IMG/VR virus record: IMGVR_UViG_2617270990_000006
DNA: 14,499 nt
From: a virus
Lineage: Duplodnaviria > Heunggongvirae > Uroviricota > Caudoviricetes
Strand: one strand, 5' to 3'
In this document: in pieces, positions 344 through 14,450 of the stretch
How the letters are laid out: every line of letters begins with the position of its first letter
Numbering within the stretch: position 1 is the first letter of the stretch
Notes under the pieces: model-generated
Databases searched by the model: none
The model's input: only the letters and a program-made list of their open reading frames with translations
Told to the model about the DNA's origin: nothing
Program-made: the position numbers and the translations under genes

Positions 344-419
344 TGGTGGCCCTTGCTGGATTTGAACCAGCGACCTGGCGATTATGAGTCGCTCGCTCTC
401 ACCACTGAGCTAAAGGGCC
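344..419 (-). tRNA. tRNA with anticodon CAU (Ile2/ileX-like, as in ileZ of lambdoid/Stx phages; Met not excluded)
   Basis: Reverse complement GGCCCTTTAGCTCAGTGGTGAGAGCGAGCGACTCATAATCGCCAGGTCGCTGGTTCAAATCCAGCAAGGGCCACCA folds as a 76-nt cloverleaf: 7-bp acceptor stem, GCTC/GAGC D-stem, loop CTCATAA, GCTGG/CCAGC T-stem with TTCAAAT loop, encoded CCA. Close to E. coli ileX as I recall it. Confidence 0.85.
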
Positions 420-468: not shown

Positions 469-1518
469 TCAAACGATTAAATCCTGAACTTCCCTGACTG
501 TCTGCTCAAAACGTCCGGTCTCCAGTTCAACGCCAATCGCACGACGCCCCAGTGCCATCGCCGCTTTTACCGTTGAACCCGACCCCATGAAAAAATCTGC
601 AACCAGGTCACCCGGACGACTGCTTGCGCTGATTATCTGCTGCAGCATTTCTGCCGGTTTTTCGCACGGATGTTTCCCGGGATAGAACTGCACCGGTTTA
701 TGTGTCCACACATCCGTGTACGGCACCTGCGCCGTCACACCAAAATACCGCCGCAGATGCTTATATTCACTCTGCAGCTCCACATACTGCCGGTTCAGTG
801 ACGTATACGTATCCACCAGCTGGTGGTGGGGCTTTTCCAGTTCACCGCGCTGATGTTTCTCTTCTGCCACCCGGGCAAACAGCGACTGTAATTTCAGATA
901 ATCGCTTTCGTTCGGTAGCTGCCACTGACTGGCACTGAACCAGTGCGACACCATGTTTTTCTTTCCTGTGACATCTGCAATCTGTTTTGCCGTTATCCCC
1001 AGGGCCGCGCGCGCATCACGAAAGTAAGAAATCAGCGGGGCCATCACATGCTGTTTCAGTGCACTGCCCTTCGCCGCATACCCGGCATCTTTCGGACGAT
1101 ACGGCCCCTGATAATGTTCCGCGAACAGAATGCGCTCTGTGGCGGGGAAATACGCCCGCAGGCTTTCCTTGTTGCATCCGTTCCAGCGTCCGGACGGCTT
1201 CGCCCAGATAATATGGTTCAGCACACTGAAGCGTTCACGCATCATGATTTCGATATCAGATGCCAGGCGATGACCACAGAACAGGTAAAGACTTCCGGCA
1301 GGTTTCAGCACCCGCCAGAACTGCGCCAGACACTGGTCCAGCCACTTCAGGTAATCATCGTCGCCCTTCCACTGGTTATCCCAGCCTTCAGGCTTCACTT
1401 TAAAGTACGGCGGGTCCGTGACTATCAGGTCAACAGAATTTTCGGGTAACGACCGGATAAATTCCAGGCAGTCGGCGTTGATTAACTCACAACTGGATAT
1501 TTTTACAGTATTAAGCAT
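469..1518 (-). CDS. DNA amino-methyltransferase, beta-class (N6-adenine likely, N4-cytosine possible); apparently orphan
   Basis: 349 aa with ATG start. DPPY (motif IV) lies near the N-terminus and FFMGSGST (motif I, FxGxG) near the C-terminus, the beta-class order, with a ~100-aa insert between them. No nuclease partner nearby. Confidence 0.8.
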   Translation of the reverse strand: MLNTVKISSCELINADCLEFIRSLPENSVDLIVTDPPYFKVKPEGWDNQWKGDDDYLKWLDQCLAQFWRVLKPAGSLYLFCGHRLASDIEIMMRERFSVLNHIIWAKPSGRWNGCNKESLRAYFPATERILFAEHYQGPYRPKDAGYAAKGSALKQHVMAPLISYFRDARAALGITAKQIADVTGKKNMVSHWFSASQWQLPNESDYLKLQSLFARVAEEKHQRGELEKPHHQLVDTYTSLNRQYVELQSEYKHLRRYFGVTAQVPYTDVWTHKPVQFYPGKHPCEKPAEMLQQIISASSRPGDLVADFFMGSGSTVKAAMALGRRAIGVELETGRFEQTVREVQDLIV

Positions 1519-4693: not shown

Positions 4694-4722
4694 AGGAAAA
4701 AACAAAACCCGCGAAGCGGGTT
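4694..4722 (-). terminator. Intrinsic terminator closing the R-M island
   Basis: Hairpin AACCCGC-GAA-GCGGGTT (4706-4722) followed on the minus strand by TTTGTTTTTTCC; about 70 bp past the endonuclease stop. Confidence 0.6.
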
Positions 4723-4794
4723 AGTAAAAATGTACTGAAGTCAATGACGTGCCATCACAGTTAAAATATGACAGACTCTATTTACGTAGAGATG

Positions 4795-5673
4795 TCAGAC
4801 TGCAAGATCCAAGGGAAGATCAGAAATATCCTTTAATCTTTTACCATTAACCATCACGGAAAGCATGTCAGCTGCATCGCTGAGCCCCAGTATTTCAACT
4901 GCTGATATAAGTTCATAAAGCGCAAAATGATACACGCAATCTATATCACCAGTACCAAGAGCAATAGACGCCAGACGACTTGGAGTAGGCTCAGCAGTAA
5001 CAACCATTACATGAGGGAGATTTCCCTTACGGTTGCGAATAAGATTTAATGCCTCAGAACGAGCATTCTGGGCCCGGTCGCTTCTTATTGTCCATTTGCA
5101 GGAAATACTTGCGTGTAATATTGGTTTCCCACCATTCGAACTCCTGAGAGCTGACATGCGGGTAACAGAATCATCCACCAGTAATTCAGGACTGTTGATA
5201 ACTTGATCACATTCAGGTTCTCTTTCAACAATAATATCTGGTGAAATCGTATAATCACTCCCCAGTGCAGCAGCTAGCTGAGGATTACTTTTTGCAGCAC
5301 TATCCAATGCTATAAGATGGGCATATTGTTCATATTTAGCTATCTCTAATCTGTTTCTACCAGAAACCTGATGTACATTCCATTTTCCAGGGCGTAAGTG
5401 GCTGAGTTTAAAAAAGGTTTTTTCTATAAACTCTGCGCAGATACTCTCAAACTGATTACCAGATGTTTGCCCTGCAACACGTTCACCAATCGTTTCAGCC
5501 TGCAAGAAGCGAGCAATTTCTCTTGCTATAGCTTTACTGTTTTTGTTACTGCTATCTGCGTTACTAACAACTCCGGCAGTATTAATTGTGAGCGTATTCA
5601 GTAACAATTGGGCATGAAACTCCTTTCTGGCTTCAGCAAAACCAACTATGCTGTCAACCAAATCTCCATTCAT
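4795..5673 (-). CDS. Type II restriction endonuclease, NgoMIV/Cfr10I/Bse634I-like (CCGG-core site predicted)
   Basis: Preferred start is the ATG at 5673 (AAGGAAA SD 9 nt upstream, 14 nt after the methyltransferase stop); the track ORF runs to 5808 with a TTG. Motifs SPDIIV ... SCK ... E with Asp-to-Lys 47 aa and Lys-to-Glu 14 aa, the spacing I recall for NgoMIV (Asp140/Lys187/Glu201). Confidence 0.7.
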   Translation of the reverse strand: MNGDLVDSIVGFAEARKEFHAQLLLNTLTINTAGVVSNADSSNKNSKAIAREIARFLQAETIGERVAGQTSGNQFESICAEFIEKTFFKLSHLRPGKWNVHQVSGRNRLEIAKYEQYAHLIALDSAAKSNPQLAAALGSDYTISPDIIVEREPECDQVINSPELLVDDSVTRMSALRSSNGGKPILHASISCKWTIRSDRAQNARSEALNLIRNRKGNLPHVMVVTAEPTPSRLASIALGTGDIDCVYHFALYELISAVEILGLSDAADMLSVMVNGKRLKDISDLPLDLAV

Positions 5674-5686
5674 TTCTGGATTTCCT

Positions 5687-6811
5687 TCAGGCTGCTTGAC
5701 TATTCTTACTGATGTTATTCTTATACCGTCCCTGCAAAACTCCATACACATATTGTGCGATTTTTGCCGCAAATAGCGGTGGAACAGCATTCCCGATCTG
5801 CTTTGCAATCTCAGTTTTTGAACCGGTAAAAATGAAATTATCAGGAAAAGACATTAATCTCGCTGCCTCACGATGAGTTATTGGCCGATCCTCTTCCGGA
5901 TGTAAATATCGCCCTTTCTCCGGTTTGAAAAACTCAGTACGAATCGTTACTGAAGGTCTGTCCCACCACAGACGTCCAAACAAATCGGTCCCTCCAGATT
6001 TCTTTTTTAGCCAGCACGCCGGGGTTATATCAGGTCTTTTTTTCTGTAAATCGAAACGGTTACCTCCTGGTGGAACCGCTTTATATCGCTCCAAAGAAAC
6101 AGGTGTGGGATTACGCCCAAAATGTAAGTTCAGCGGAGGAAGTTCATTACGAATATCAGTTCCAACAGGAGCAGGTAAGTCACCAATTGCATCACGCGTA
6201 CAGACCCATTCAGGCAAAGCGACATCCTTATCAGGGGAACGATGCGTTGGTGCTGGCGGGAACGCCGGAATACTATGCACATCGAAGAGTTCTCGTTTGA
6301 TACCGATTGCTATCGTTCGTTTTCTTGTCTGAGGTACTCCATAGTCAGCAGTATTCAACACCATTGGATTAAGCAGAATAAAGCCCATGGATTTCGCTCT
6401 AAACGTAATGTCCGCAAACTCATCGCTTATCAGCAATCCGGGGACATTTTCCATGACGAACATACAAGCCCTTGAACGCTCAATGACATCCATATAAGGC
6501 TCCCACAATGCTCTTCGGTGATCACCATAACGATTCTTATTTAATAAACTGAATCCCTGACACGGGGGGCCACCTATGACCACATCAGCCTCAGGAACAG
6601 TATTGCTGGATGCCCACTCCTCAATATTTGCCTGAACTCCATGCAAACCAAAATTGGCATTGTAGGTATTTATAGCTGCAGCATTATTATCAATAGCAAG
6701 GATACTTTCAAAGTAGTCAGACATCTCTCCATGAAGAAAACCATAAGATAATCCACCTGCCCCACAAAAGAGGTCTATCACTCTGAATTTATTTAATTCT
6801 TTCATCCGCAT
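5687..6811 (-). CDS. DNA (cytosine-5)-methyltransferase, cognate of the adjacent endonuclease
   Basis: 374 aa with C5-MTase motifs in order: FCGAGG (I), GGPPCQGFS (IV), ENV (VI), QTRKR (VIII), GNAVPP (X). Confidence 0.9.
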   Translation of the reverse strand: MRMKELNKFRVIDLFCGAGGLSYGFLHGEMSDYFESILAIDNNAAAINTYNANFGLHGVQANIEEWASSNTVPEADVVIGGPPCQGFSLLNKNRYGDHRRALWEPYMDVIERSRACMFVMENVPGLLISDEFADITFRAKSMGFILLNPMVLNTADYGVPQTRKRTIAIGIKRELFDVHSIPAFPPAPTHRSPDKDVALPEWVCTRDAIGDLPAPVGTDIRNELPPLNLHFGRNPTPVSLERYKAVPPGGNRFDLQKKRPDITPACWLKKKSGGTDLFGRLWWDRPSVTIRTEFFKPEKGRYLHPEEDRPITHREAARLMSFPDNFIFTGSKTEIAKQIGNAVPPLFAAKIAQYVYGVLQGRYKNNISKNSQAA

Positions 6812-6989
6812 CCATATGCCTCAGATTAATGTTGAGCGTCTTACAGGACGCGTAATGTTAACTGGGGCTTTCTCTATCTGCCTTTTGGTGTTCATGCCTG
6901 AGGCAGACAGCCTCAGGCACCCGCAGCAATTCTACTTAACTCACGTCACCTCGCCAATATGAAATCAATCAGAAAGGTGATCCATAAAA

Positions 6990-7676
6990 TCACTCCTTCT
7001 CTTCTTTTCCGTAGTGGAGTTGGCCAATTTTGATAAGAGGGCGTCCCTGAGATTTGCGGTGTAGATTGGTATCGCGCAGAGAATACACACAGCCACAATA
7101 TTCCTGCTGATAGAATTTTTCGCGCTTGCTGATTTCAATCATACGGGACGAGCCGCCCTGCTTGCGCCAGTTATAATCCCAGTACACCATACCCGGATAA
7201 TGCGCAACAGCTCGCCGCCCACACTCGTTAACCTGCTGCATATTTTTCCAGCGTGAAATGCCCAGTGAACTGCTGATCACACTGAAACCATTTTCAGCAG
7301 CGTACAACGCTGTCCGCTCAAAACGCATGTCAAAACACATGGTACAACGGATCCCCCTCTCAGGCTCCCATTCCATTCCTTTGGCACGTTCAAACCAGTT
7401 GTCGGTGTCGTAATCAGCATCGATAAACGGCACGCCGTGTTGTTCAGCAAAGCGAATATTTTCATCCTTACGAATTAAATACTCTTTCTGAGGATGAATG
7501 TTCGGGTTGTAGAAAAAGATGGTGTAGTCGATTCCCGAGGCCTGAAGCGCCTCCATCACTTCACCGGAACATGGAGCACAGCAAGAGTGCAGTAGTAGTT
7601 TGTTTGCCCCGTTTGGGAGTTCCAATTTAGGCCGTTTGAAATCAGCAATAGTCATAAATATTTTTATTGGGGTCAT
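6990..7676 (-). CDS. QueH-like protein (DUF208, epoxyqueuosine reductase family)
   Basis: 228 aa. N-terminal [13 protein letters not shown] and C-terminal YCGCVYS conserved Cys motifs as I recall for QueH/DUF208. AT-rich like the neighbouring R-M genes. No convincing SD at either candidate ATG (7676 or 7655). Confidence 0.7.
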
Positions 7677-11896: not shown

Positions 11897-12088
11897 ATGA
11901 GTACAGCCCTTTCCCCGATAATTTCTGAATTTGAAACAGTCGAACAAGAAAACAGCTATAACGAATGGTTGCGAACCAAAGTGGCAGCAAGCCTCTCAGA
12001 TCCCCGTCCTGCAATTCCACATGACGAAGTAATGGCTGAAATGGAAAACCTTATTGCTCAATTAGCTGCAACGAACAGGAGTGAGTAA
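11897..12088 (+). CDS. paaA: Antitoxin of the ParE toxin (PaaA-like)
   Basis: 63 aa. GAGGAGG SD 7 nt upstream. Stop overlaps the toxin start (TAATG). Length and context match the PaaA2 antitoxin of the paaR2-paaA2-parE2 system as recalled. Confidence 0.65.
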   Translation: MSTALSPIISEFETVEQENSYNEWLRTKVAASLSDPRPAIPHDEVMAEMENLIAQLAATNRSE

Positions 12089-12378
12089 TGCTGCCCATTT
12101 TATGGCTACCTTCTGCACGTGATGATTTACGTCAGATCGTAGCCTATATTGCTAAGGAAAACCCTCCCGCTGCACGTAGACTAAAAATACGCATTGAAAC
12201 ATCAGTTTTGTCACTTACTGAACACCCTTATCTGTACCCACCGAGCGAAAGAGTTCCAAGTCTTCGTGAGATAGTGACTCATCCTAACTACATAATACTT
12301 TACCGAGTAACAGCATCTAACATCGAGATCGTAAATGTAGTTCACTCACGAAGACAGTATCCAAACAAAACCTGTTAA
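12088..12378 (+). CDS. parE: ParE/RelE-superfamily toxin
   Basis: 96 aa. ParE-like pattern: WLPSARDDLRQIVAYIAKENPPAARRL ... LREIVTHPNYIILYRV ... IEIVNVVHSRR. AGGAG SD; coupled to the antitoxin. Confidence 0.85.
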   Translation: MLPILWLPSARDDLRQIVAYIAKENPPAARRLKIRIETSVLSLTEHPYLYPPSERVPSLREIVTHPNYIILYRVTASNIEIVNVVHSRRQYPNKTC

Positions 12379-13236: not shown

Positions 13237-14127
13237 TCAGGCTGCCAGATCATCGTTTCCGATGGAAGCATAATAAGCTTTTTCTGCTTCTGCCGGAGGA
13301 GTATGGCCCAGCCTTCCCAGCAATCGTCGATTGTTATACCAGTCCACCCACGTTAGTGTGGCCAGTTCCACTTCTGCACGGTTTTTCCAGCTCTTACGGT
13401 GTATTACCTCCGCTTTGTAAAGACCATTGATGCTCTCAGCCATCGCGTTGTCATACGAGTCGCCTGTACTCCCTGTTGATGCCAGTAATCCGGCTTCTTT
13501 TAGTCGCTCCGTATAGGCCAGTGACACATACTGAGAGCCTTTATCGCTGTGATGGATGGTGCCAGACGGACGACGGGCCCACAACGCCTGCTCCAGCGCA
13601 TCCAGCACGAATGTCGTTTCCATAGACGATGAGACCCGCCACCCCACGATGTATCCGGCAAACACATCAATGATAAACGCCACATAGACGAAGCCCTGCC
13701 ATGTGCTGACGTAAGTAAAATCAGCCACCCACAGCTGGTCAGGTCGTTCTGCCACGAACTGACGGTTTACGCGGTCGCCTGCGGCAACGGCTTTCCGGCT
13801 GATGGTCGTACGGACCTTTTTACCCCGGAGAACACCGGCAAGTCCCATAACCGCCATGAGACGTGCCACTGTACATCTGGCCACCCTGATTCCTTCCCGT
13901 AACAACTGACGCCAGACTTTACGCACACCGTACACCTGATGATTTTCATCGTATACGCGCTGTATCTCTCTCTTCAGCCAGTCGTCGTGCTGCGCACGGG
14001 CACTGCGTTTATCCGGATGATGTCGCTGTTGCTGACAATGGTAATACGTTGACGGGGCAATATGCAGTTCGCTGCATACCGGTCCGACCCCGTACTGCTC
14101 ACGCAGCTTATCCAGCAGTGGCATCAT
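13237..14127 (-). CDS. IS3-family transposase OrfB (integrase core, DDE)
   Basis: 296 aa matching IS629 OrfB as recalled ([16 protein letters not shown] ...). DDE residues in [17 protein letters not shown] and [15 protein letters not shown] overlap with orfA. Confidence 0.9.
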
Positions 14128-14450
14128 TTTTTCCAGAGGCGGTCGAACTCCGCCTTCGCAAAATAAGCGGAAGCCTGGCGAAGGATATCGTTACTGCGGC
14201 GCAGTTCACGATTTTCACGTTCCAGCTCTTTCAGACGCTGACGTTCAGCGCTGGTGAGCCCACCATCACCGCCCCCGGTATCCCGCTCATGCTGGCGAAC
14301 CCAGACACGCAGAGTCTCCGGCGTACAGCCAATCTTTGGGGCAATGGAACAAATTGCCGCCCACTGTGAGTCATATTCATCCTGACTTTCCAGAACCATA
14401 CGAATCGCCCGCTGACGGACTTCGGGGGAAAAACGAGTATTTTTAGTCAT
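14124..14450 (-). CDS. IS3-family transposase OrfA (HTH/leucine-zipper part)
   Basis: 108 aa, [51 protein letters not shown] ..., matching IS629/IS1203 OrfA as recalled. A-rich run GGAAAAAATGA at the orfA/orfB junction suits -1 frameshifting. Confidence 0.9.

Follow-up and report, generated by a model that had tools for sequence, protein, structure and literature searches.

A two-gene cassette in a Rac/lambda-like Escherichia coli prophage is very likely an intact, horizontally acquired type II restriction-modification (R-M) operon, methyltransferase gene (M) first and endonuclease gene (R) after it, carried as cargo in the delayed-early (nin-like) region. As an R-M system the cassette is an ordinary member of a known family, named as such by routine annotation. 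Its unusual feature, judged from alignments, is that it occupies the exact site of a hok/sok locus and keeps the hok promoter and RNA leader. The window analysed here is the whole 14,499-nt stretch of viral DNA (IMG/VR record IMGVR_UViG_2617270990_000006), and all positions refer to it (Table 1). A first-pass annotation made from the sequence had placed a complete type II R-M system at 4795-6811; both reading frames are found there on the minus strand, and their identities are supported by Pfam, PDB and PADLOC. The literature on NgoMIV or GCCGGC in E. coli prophages or methylomes, and on replacement of hok/sok by R-M systems, does not describe the locus, and our literature search found neither a publication on the R enzyme nor published methylome, transcript-start or restriction data for the cassette.

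Table 1. Features of the cassette and of the retained hok/sok elements, in window coordinates
Feature	Position	Strand	Basis
Whole cassette, 2.1 kb	4726..6817	(-)	G+C content, junction mapping
hok-type sigma-70 promoter, TTGGCG 6957-6952, 17-nt spacer, TAGAAT 6934-6929 (predicted)	6929..6957	(-)	promoter scan
Retained hok mRNA 5' leader	6818..6922	(-)	Rfam RF01794; alignments to Rac-SA53, PMV-1 and strain 136; predicted fold
M, C5-cytosine DNA methyltransferase, 374 aa	5687..6811	(-)	PF00145, TIGR00675, PADLOC MTase_II, homologues, PDB methyltransferase matches
M-R spacer, 13 nt, AGGAAATCCAGAA	5674..5686	(-)	sequence; same layout in L014 and L015
R, NgoMIV-family type II restriction endonuclease, 292 aa	4795..5673	(-)	PF09015, PDB 1fiu, PADLOC REase_II, residue mapping
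3' untranslated stretch, 69 nt	4726..4794	(-)	alignments: no homology to hokD loci or to related cassettes
Intrinsic terminator common to hokD loci, stem-loop 4722-4706 then T run	4696..4725	(-)	terminator scan, megablast, alignment

The endonuclease, the methyltransferase and their operon

R matches the Pfam profile PF09015 (NgoMIV_restric) at 6e-127 and 423 bits (cut-off 23.2) over profile positions 1-275 of 275, the NgoMIV structure PDB 1fiu at 1e-118 over residues 12-292, and the PADLOC REase_II model at 8e-126. A chance match is no concern at these Pfam and PDB scores. R is 66% identical over its full length to the crystallised NgoMIV enzyme. The permuted active-site motif of the CCGG family is PD-X46-53-K-X13-E plus an upstream Glu (PMC3413111), and in the alignment the catalytic residues E76, D146, K193 and E207 of R are the counterparts of NgoMIV E70, D140, K187 and E201. 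The motifs SPD (144-146) and SCK (191-193) and residue E207 are spaced by 47 and 14 residues, identical to NgoMIV; the spacing given in the first-pass annotation is that of NgoMIV D140/K187/E201. That annotation had named an unrelated family with an incomplete catalytic motif as the contrary outcome; instead, homology to NgoMIV extends over the full length and the catalytic residues are intact.

The CCGG core is read by an R-x-D-R motif (PMC2532715, PMC3413111), and R197-S198-D199-R200 of R align with R191-S192-D193-R194 of NgoMIV. The reported readers of the outer G:C pair in NgoMIV, D34, Q63, S192 and R227 (PMC4652773, PMC5389614), correspond to D40, Q69, S198 and R233 in R, all four identical. 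For the catalytic and base-contacting residues of NgoMIV, the roles given here follow PMC3413111, PMC4652773 and PMC5389614. Because these residues are all conserved, the recognition site of R is predicted to be G/CCGGC. The CCGG-core site proposed earlier is backed by the conserved RSDR motif, and the prediction narrows to GCCGGC since the outer-base-pair determinants D34, Q63 and R227 are also kept. It is highly improbable that the system is active on another CCGG-core sequence, for example the degenerate RCCGGY of Cfr10I and Bse634I: enzymes of the family that share the fold and the RxDR motif do vary in outer-base specificity (PMC3413111), and M lies outside the M.NgoMIV lineage, but the identity of the four outer-pair residues, the 66% overall identity to NgoMIV and the 79% identity of R to a plasmid-borne homologue with an M.NgoMIV-type methylase as its partner all argue for GCCGGC.

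The start of R is ATG 5673, the same as in RefSeq and in homologues, and many relatives are also 292 aa long. A mechanically called reading frame of 337 aa from TTG 5808 was rejected; its extension overlaps M and is without homology. The R family is strongly conserved, at 76-89% identity across many proteobacteria. This conservation, together with the full length of R, its intact catalytic residues and its identity of at least 99% in 59 of 60 carrier genomes, stands against an attenuated or non-functional R that would leave the locus in effect a solitary methyltransferase with an epigenetic or anti-restriction role. Orphan methylases are frequent in prophages, and this prophage has another methylase at 469-1518, yet we regard such a locus as the least probable of the readings weighed here.

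M matches PF00145 (DNA_methylase) at 4e-54 and 184.6 bits (cut-off 22) over profile positions 1-320 of 324, TIGR00675 at 154.5 bits (cut-off 100.65) and the PADLOC MTase_II model at 2e-87; homologues were found at 66-84% identity. All the C5-methyltransferase signature motifs that had been claimed for it can be read in the translation: FCGAGG (I), GGPPCQGFS with Cys84 (IV), ENV (VI), QTRKR (VIII), REAARLMSFPD (IX) and GNAVPP (X). RefSeq places the start of M two codons downstream, at ATG 6805, giving 372 aa. Its motifs show M to be a complete C5-cytosine methyltransferase; its lineage differs from that of M.NgoMIV. Orthology to M.NgoMIV of Neisseria gonorrhoeae was rejected: identity is 22% and confined to generic motifs, and M.NgoMIV is a protein of 312 aa with PCPPFS, as opposed to 374 aa with PCQGFS in the cassette. 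Because of this divergence, and because the near relatives of M in other bacteria, such as Yersinia, Edwardsiella and Idiomarina, are partnered with HNH nucleases, we infer the target sequence of M only from its partnership with R, a pairing conserved in four contexts.

M and R are adjacent and co-oriented, and the RefSeq product names already agree with their R-M identity. The stop codon of M (5689..5687) is followed by 13 intergenic bases and then by the start of R. R therefore begins at the 14th base past the stop codon, in agreement with the first-pass annotation. A Shine-Dalgarno-like AGGA lies directly at the M stop and overlaps it. NgoMIV-family R genes adjoin relatives of M (78-84% identity) in Klebsiella prophages, on a lambdoid phage contig and on the Cronobacter chromosome; in L014 and L015 the genes are separated by the same 13-nt spacer, in L006 by a gap of 9 nt. 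Given the short spacer with its AGGA, the lack of any predicted terminator-like site between M and R, and the spacer's conservation in relatives, co-transcription of the two genes, which had been thought probable, is likely.

A hok/sok locus replaced by the cassette

The cassette lies between the replication genes and the DUF968-RusA-Q genes, in agreement with the earlier description of cargo in the replication/nin region. The hok/sok site, and the proposed use of its promoter and leader by the cassette, were absent from that description. The G+C content of the cassette is 42.6% versus 51-53% in the flanks. In E. coli PMV-1 and strain 136, which have the same flanks and no cassette, hokD fills the exact cassette interval. 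Homology to hok loci stops at C6818, just past the mok Shine-Dalgarno sequence, and the backbone is homologous again from about 4725; in cassette-less genomes the megablast match of the left flank ends at window position 4723. Alignment to hokD loci revealed no mok or hok reading frame between 6818 and about 4725. The fbi element, which in PMV-1 reads CCTCAACGCACCC and has complementarity to the leader's 5' end, is absent from the 3' region of the cassette. The cassette is foreign DNA that has taken the place of the mok and hok coding sequences, the sok promoter and fbi. A surviving sok gene was considered and rejected: there is no plus-strand promoter-like site at 6700-6830, and the segment that bears the sok promoter in PMV-1 is replaced by the cassette. 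A RyhB match at 4699-4756 (24 bits versus a gathering threshold of 55) is merely the terminator hairpin.

The retained leader comprises a 5' (tac-type) stem-loop, a hairpin with complementarity to the Sok 3' part and, finally, the mok Shine-Dalgarno sequence GAGG (6822-6819), with ATG 6811 of M located 7 nt past the latter. With Rfam RF01794 the leader reaches 61 bits (gathering threshold 59), where intact loci reach 113-122 bits, and the alignment is convincing over model positions 1-86 only. Folding predicts that the two possible start codons of M pair with nucleotides of the leader, which could limit translation. The transcript start is predicted at about G6922, where position 1 of the Rfam model aligns. 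Promoter-like matches in the region are no commoner than in shuffled sequences, which tells against the 9-of-12 match of the hok-type promoter too; an internal promoter-like site in M (6711..6683, 10/12) was set aside for this reason.

According to a review (PMC3874152), a weak promoter drives constitutive synthesis of the mok-hok mRNA. Because the cassette keeps the hok promoter, leader, mok Shine-Dalgarno sequence and terminator, and has lost the sok promoter and fbi, transcription of M and R in lysogens independently of the phage repressor is suggested.

Expression and proposed function

We consider it moderately probable that the retained hok promoter, independent of the repressor, drives transcription of M and R in lysogens from a start near 6922, and that read-through from the early rightward promoter adds to it in the lytic phase. 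M would be translated from ATG 6811 or 6805, just past the mok Shine-Dalgarno sequence, and translation of R would be coupled to it via the AGGA at the M stop. A cassette that is silent in lysogens and expressed only on the early lytic transcript, through read-through from the cro-side promoter across the replication genes and QueH, seems to us unlikely. Its main effect would be methylated progeny DNA that more readily escapes isospecific restriction in new hosts, and cutting of unmethylated competitor DNA in the lytic phase, with no standing defence or addiction for the lysogen. This would fit the orientation of M and R, which is that of cro, the replication genes and Q, the absence of a predicted terminator-like site between QueH and M, and the fact that the predicted hok promoter matches the consensus at only 9 of 12 positions. 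On the other hand, the promoter hexamers and their spacing are those of intact hokD loci (the hexamers are identical in PMV-1), whose promoter stands apart from phage early transcription (PMC3874152); R without continuous expression of M would be hazardous upon induction; and the cassette is still intact in strain B-1109, whose prophage is reduced to a remnant by extensive deletion.

The retained leader also raises a possibility that we rate as improbable, namely that sibling prophages in the same genome, where their hokD/sok loci are intact, supply Sok antisense RNAs that pair with the mRNA of M and R and tune or gate the R-M operon in trans. This could occur because the leader keeps the Sok-complementary hairpin and the mok Shine-Dalgarno sequence. 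Cassette-bearing O157 genomes have 5-7 places that match the flank query.

As for the activity of the encoded proteins, it is very probable that R, probably acting as a two-site tetramer in the manner of NgoMIV, would cut G/CCGGC and that M would methylate a cytosine in GCCGGC and so protect host and prophage DNA. If M and R are active in the lysogen, incoming unmethylated DNA bearing GCCGGC sites would therefore plausibly be restricted. By analogy with the displaced hok/sok locus, loss of the prophage could bring post-segregational cutting, which would give the cassette a plausible selfish, stabilising role; hok/sok and type II R-M systems are both classed as post-segregational killers (PMC3874152). 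We regard both putative roles, lysogen defence and addiction, as reasonable and plausible.

The window contains no GCCGGC site, versus about 4 expected under a Markov model. Avoidance of the site was rejected as a sign of activity: observed/expected ratios are 0.3-0.4 in cassette-less prophages and chromosomal DNA as well, and the cassette-bearing prophage of O157:H7 strain 9000 contains 6 sites. In all the E. coli and prophage DNA sampled, GCCGGC occurs about 3-fold less often than expected. Since the site is rare and NgoMIV-type tetramers require two sites (PMC5389614), defence may reach only a subset of phages.

Distribution, related systems and significance

The same junctions were found in 60 of 5,426 complete E. 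coli genomes (59 of them at no less than 99% identity), and these carriers, about 1% of the complete genomes, include O157:H7, O103 and O111 lineages. The exact 31-nt junction also occurs on 7 metagenome contigs with differing mosaic backbones, and the exact 5' junction 31-mer had no match in GTDB species representatives. Searches at near and distant sensitivity found the cassette in none of 50,697 records of isolated phage genomes; only the flank of about 85 nt with the hok leader matches.

Among the closest known systems is the NgoMIV system of N. gonorrhoeae (PDB 1FIU/4ABT; G/CCGGC; type IIF tetramer), which shares with R the permuted active site, the RSDR motif and the outer-pair residues. 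Gene order there is likewise M then R, directly adjacent, but the genes abut, whereas the prophage cassette has its spacer, and the locus is on the gonococcal chromosome instead of at a hok/sok locus of an E. coli prophage. NgoMIV-family systems on plasmids (such as E. coli pNORD58_4 and plasmids of Achromobacter, Delftia and Pseudomonas), whose R is the 79% identical homologue, are also cargo of mobile elements; they differ in residing on conjugative plasmids and in having a methylase of the M.NgoMIV type (72% identical to M.NgoMIV), unlike that of the cassette.

Units with both M and R in the same order are found in a Klebsiella michiganensis lambdoid prophage, the lambdoid phage contig L014 and the Cronobacter dublinensis chromosome (M 78-84%, R 84-89% identical). 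Of these three Enterobacterales relatives, two likewise lie between the replication genes and Q in lambdoid prophages. The relatives share an upstream region of their own (TATGGGTATTTATACAGC...) that is conserved and lacks the hok leader, and among the compared units the fusion to the hok promoter and leader occurs only in the E. coli version. The hokD-type hok/sok loci of E. coli lambdoid prophages and plasmid R1 are homologous to the cassette locus in the promoter, the 5' leader up to the mok Shine-Dalgarno sequence and the terminator, and share its position in the prophage; the cassette differs from them in lacking the mok/hok reading frames, the sok promoter and fbi, with an R-M operon as payload.

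That a single methyltransferase lineage is partnered with nucleases of two unrelated folds adds one more small case of partner shuffling among R-M systems. In the cassette, one selfish stabilising module (hok/sok) has been swapped to the nucleotide for another (R-M), which inherited its promoter, leader and terminator. The hok/sok site thereby stands out as a point of cargo exchange in lambdoid prophages, and the swap offers a concrete and testable account of how a prophage-borne R-M system could be expressed independently of the phage repressor. Control by Sok in trans, if true, would place an R-M system under a type I antitoxin RNA and tie prophage-prophage interactions to restriction. The practical relevance is modest: some STEC lineages could have a GCCGGC-specific barrier and m5C mark, with possible consequences for transformation, for phage therapy or typing, and for the exchange of prophages.

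Identity and predicted specificity of the two enzymes

The first-pass annotation read 4795-6811 as two ORFs, a C5-cytosine methyltransferase with signature motifs (M) and an NgoMIV-family endonuclease (R) starting 14 nt past the M stop. Its coordinates and spacing were correct, both genes being co-oriented on the minus strand, and both family assignments were borne out. M matched Pfam DNA_methylase over nearly the entire profile (4e-54) and TIGR00675 at 154 bits (cut-off 100.65), was called MTase_II by PADLOC, and carries the canonical motifs FCGAGG, GGPPCQGFS, ENV, QTRKR, REAARLMSFPD and GNAVPP. Among solved structures, M is closest to m5C methyltransferases of bacteria and eukaryotes, and every sequence test placed it among the C5 methyltransferases. 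The sequence tests likewise all placed R in the NgoMIV/CCGG family: Pfam NgoMIV_restric matched end to end (6e-127), and crystallised NgoMIV (PDB 1FIU/4ABT) matched at 1e-118, with 66% identity in a residue-by-residue mapping. PADLOC would class the pair as RM type II. A mechanical ORF listing had started R at TTG 5808, which was set aside in favour of the ATG backed by homologues and RefSeq.

All NgoMIV residues named in the structural literature are kept in R. The active site E70, D140, K187 and E201 corresponds to E76, D146, K193 and E207, and the SPD/SCK/E spacings of 47 and 14 noted earlier are those of NgoMIV. Also retained are the CCGG-reading stretch R191-S192-D193-R194 and D34, Q63 and R227, the residues that specify the outer G:C pair jointly with S192 (family motif PD-X46-53-K-X13-E, RxDR rule and outer-pair residues: PMC3413111, PMC2532715, PMC4652773, PMC5389614). 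Because these residues are conserved, the earlier CCGG-core prediction can be sharpened, and our best prediction from the sequence is G/CCGGC.

M was also considered as the M.NgoMIV orthologue. In the gonococcal locus a 312-aa methylase directly precedes R.NgoMIV, whose 286 aa match the PDB sequence exactly, but M shares only 22% identity with it, limited to generic motifs, and orthology was rejected. The NgoMIV system thus has its own methylase of another type, as do plasmid-borne NgoMIV-family systems, in which a methylase 72% identical to M.NgoMIV adjoins an endonuclease 79% identical to R. The specificity proposed for M therefore rests on its partnership with R, not on orthology with a characterised enzyme.

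Coordinates of features in the window and in comparison stretches (L-numbers)
Feature	Stretch	Position	Strand	Remark
tRNA-Met (CAU)	window	344-419	-	just downstream of solitary methyltransferase
Solitary N6_N4_Mtase	window	469-1518	-	PADLOC MTase_II 3.5e-167
Shared hok terminator	window	4722-4706	-	alignment with cassette-less relatives
Cassette (M and R)	window	4726..6817	-	
R	window	4795..5673	-	292 aa; start ATG 5673
M-R spacer	window	between M stop 5689-5687 and ATG 5673	-	13 nt, AGGAAATCCAGAA
M	window	5687..6811	-	374 aa; upstream ORF of pair
Rfam sok match	window	6922..6742	-	61 bits
Chimeric-leader fold	window	6780-6860	-	
hok mRNA 5' end	window	G6922	-	within stretch homologous to hok loci
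hok promoter	window	6957-6929	-	TTGGCG, 17 nt, TAGAAT; homologous to hok loci
QueH	window	6990-7676	-	Pfam 1e-65
63-aa ORF	window	11897-12088	+	abuts ParE gene upstream
ParE-family toxin	window	12088-12378	+	6.6e-18
IS3-family element	window	13237-14450	-	HTH_Tnp_1 ORF and rve ORF
ALIL pseudoknot	window	14053-14169	-	Rfam 121 bits
Joint in B-1109 remnant	L001	19334-20100		
Native upstream block	L014	3760-3870		
Native upstream block	L015	3760-3872		
Native upstream block	L007	4890-5000		
M relative and HNH nuclease	L009	4001-6092		
M relative and HNH nuclease	L010/L011	4001-6073		
M relative and HNH nuclease	L012/L013	4001-6068		

The hok/sok shell and predicted expression of the operon

Both junctions were mapped by aligning the locus to phage Rac-SA53 and to E. 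coli prophages that lack the cassette (PMV-1, strain 136); in these relatives, mok/hokD occupies the equivalent interval. Homology to hok loci spans the promoter, 5' stem-loop, Sok-complementary hairpin and mok Shine-Dalgarno sequence GAGGC, ends at 6818, and restarts at about 4725, just ahead of the common terminator. Since homology to the related cassette of a lambdoid phage contig (L014) starts at about 6816, the 5' junction is fixed to 1-2 nt. The mok Shine-Dalgarno sequence lies 7 nt upstream of the M start codon at 6811 and 13 nt upstream of that at 6805 (RefSeq). Missing from the locus are the mok/hok ORFs, the sok-promoter-bearing segment of intact loci, and the 3' fbi element, which in PMV-1 reads CCTCAACGCACCC and is complementary to the leader 5' end. 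The Rfam sok match scores 61 bits, compared with 113-122 bits for intact loci, and only the first 86 model positions align well; the locus is a shell of hok/sok, not a hok/sok locus. M and R form an intact operon in that order, bounded by the hok promoter and leader and the hok terminator. A terminator scan found no terminator-like site between them, and the spacer layout, with AGGA directly 3' of the M stop, is also kept in related cassettes.

Because mok-hok has a weak promoter of its own that yields mRNA constitutively (review PMC3874152), the operon is probably transcribed in lysogens without dependence on the phage repressor. As it has the same orientation as the early genes, with no terminator predicted upstream, read-through would probably also transcribe it during lytic growth. 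The leader should impose no hok-style translational latency, since fbi and a cis sok gene are missing. In the minimum-free-energy fold, both candidate M start codons are paired with leader nucleotides: cassette-derived AUGGAUGCGGAUG pairs with UUACGCGUCCUGU, a segment that normally forms the Sok-complementary hairpin. Through this pairing the fusion may have introduced a brake on translation, and M may be translated only modestly. Cassette-bearing O157 genomes have 5-7 places matching the flank query. Trans action on the hok leader by Sok RNAs of hok/sok loci in sibling prophages is a reading that we consider improbable.

Distribution and relatives of the cassette

The window is a Rac/lambda-like prophage of E. 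coli with a mosaic make-up. Its minus-strand order is cro-like HTH, YdaT, DnaT-domain replication protein, lambda-P-like protein, DUF1627, DUF977, QueH, M, R, a small hypothetical gene, DUF968, RusA, antiterminator Q, N6/N4 methyltransferase and tRNA-Met; a divergent cI-like repressor, ParE toxin and IS3-family element occupy the right end. QueH, an epoxyqueuosine reductase and tRNA-modification enzyme directly upstream of the hok promoter, is further cargo of this region; we found no paper tying it to E. coli prophages. The solitary methyltransferase, downstream of Q and without an adjacent nuclease, is a conserved feature of this site in many lambdoid prophages, among them those of strain 9000 and PMV-1, and related prophages carry tRNA-Ile/Arg/Arg at the place of tRNA-Met. 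The ParE gene, beside the repressor, and the 63-aa ORF likely form a type II toxin-antitoxin pair, potentially another stabilising or defence module. The IS3-family copy, whose pseudoknot is its programmed-frameshift element, interrupts the early-left region.

The cassette with both flanks occurred in 60 of 5,426 complete E. coli genomes, including O157:H7, O103, O111 and O39 (at least 99% identity in 59 of the 60), and in none of 50,697 deposited phage genomes. At 42.6%, the cassette is lower in G+C than its flanks (51-53%). The exact 31-nt 5' junction was present in seven metagenome contigs with differing mosaic backbones and had no match among GTDB species representatives. In RefSeq, M is already named "DNA cytosine methyltransferase" and R "NgoMIV family type II restriction endonuclease"; our literature search found no publication on the cassette or the hok/sok-to-R-M swap.

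The M lineage is widespread among gammaproteobacteria (66-81% identity), and the R family is very conserved over many proteobacteria (76-89%). M relatives of 78-84% identity adjoin NgoMIV-family endonuclease genes in a lambdoid phage contig, a Cronobacter chromosome and Klebsiella lambdoid prophages, with gaps of 13 nt (L014, L015) or 9 nt (L006); judged from these neighbourhoods, M and R are a stable unit in Enterobacterales. The related cassettes (Klebsiella, Cronobacter, L014) have in common a conserved native upstream region unlike that of the E. coli version and gave no Rfam sok match, which indicates that only that version has the hok fusion. Their native block (…TATGGGTATTTATACAGC.T.AAAATAT…), missing in the E. 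coli copy, presumably serves them as promoter or operator.

In Yersinia kristensenii, Edwardsiella tarda and Idiomarina, the gene after the M relative (66-75% identity) encodes an unrelated nuclease (HNH, about 325 aa); the Y. kristensenii pair lies inside a P2-like prophage, adjoining a PvuRts1I-like gene. One methylase lineage is therefore combined with two nuclease folds. The variable target-recognition region of M is highly conserved in both groups, and the two partners are possibly neoschizomers.

Predicted restriction and possible roles in defence and addiction

R would cut DNA unmethylated at GCCGGC. NgoMIV works as a tetramer and requires two sites (PMC5389614). In the window and L001-L008, GCCGGC occurs at about 0.3-0.4 of Markov expectation, an under-representation of about 3-fold that extends to all E. 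coli/Klebsiella prophage and chromosomal stretches examined, with or without the cassette. For both reasons its defensive range may be limited. In a prophage remnant of E. coli B-1109, tail genes are fused to the DNA just 3' of the cassette, DUF968, Q, lysis and head genes having been deleted; M and R are kept, 100% identical to those of the window. Alongside this persistence, an addiction role for the cassette is plausible and would fit its displacement of a known post-segregational killer, hok/sok.
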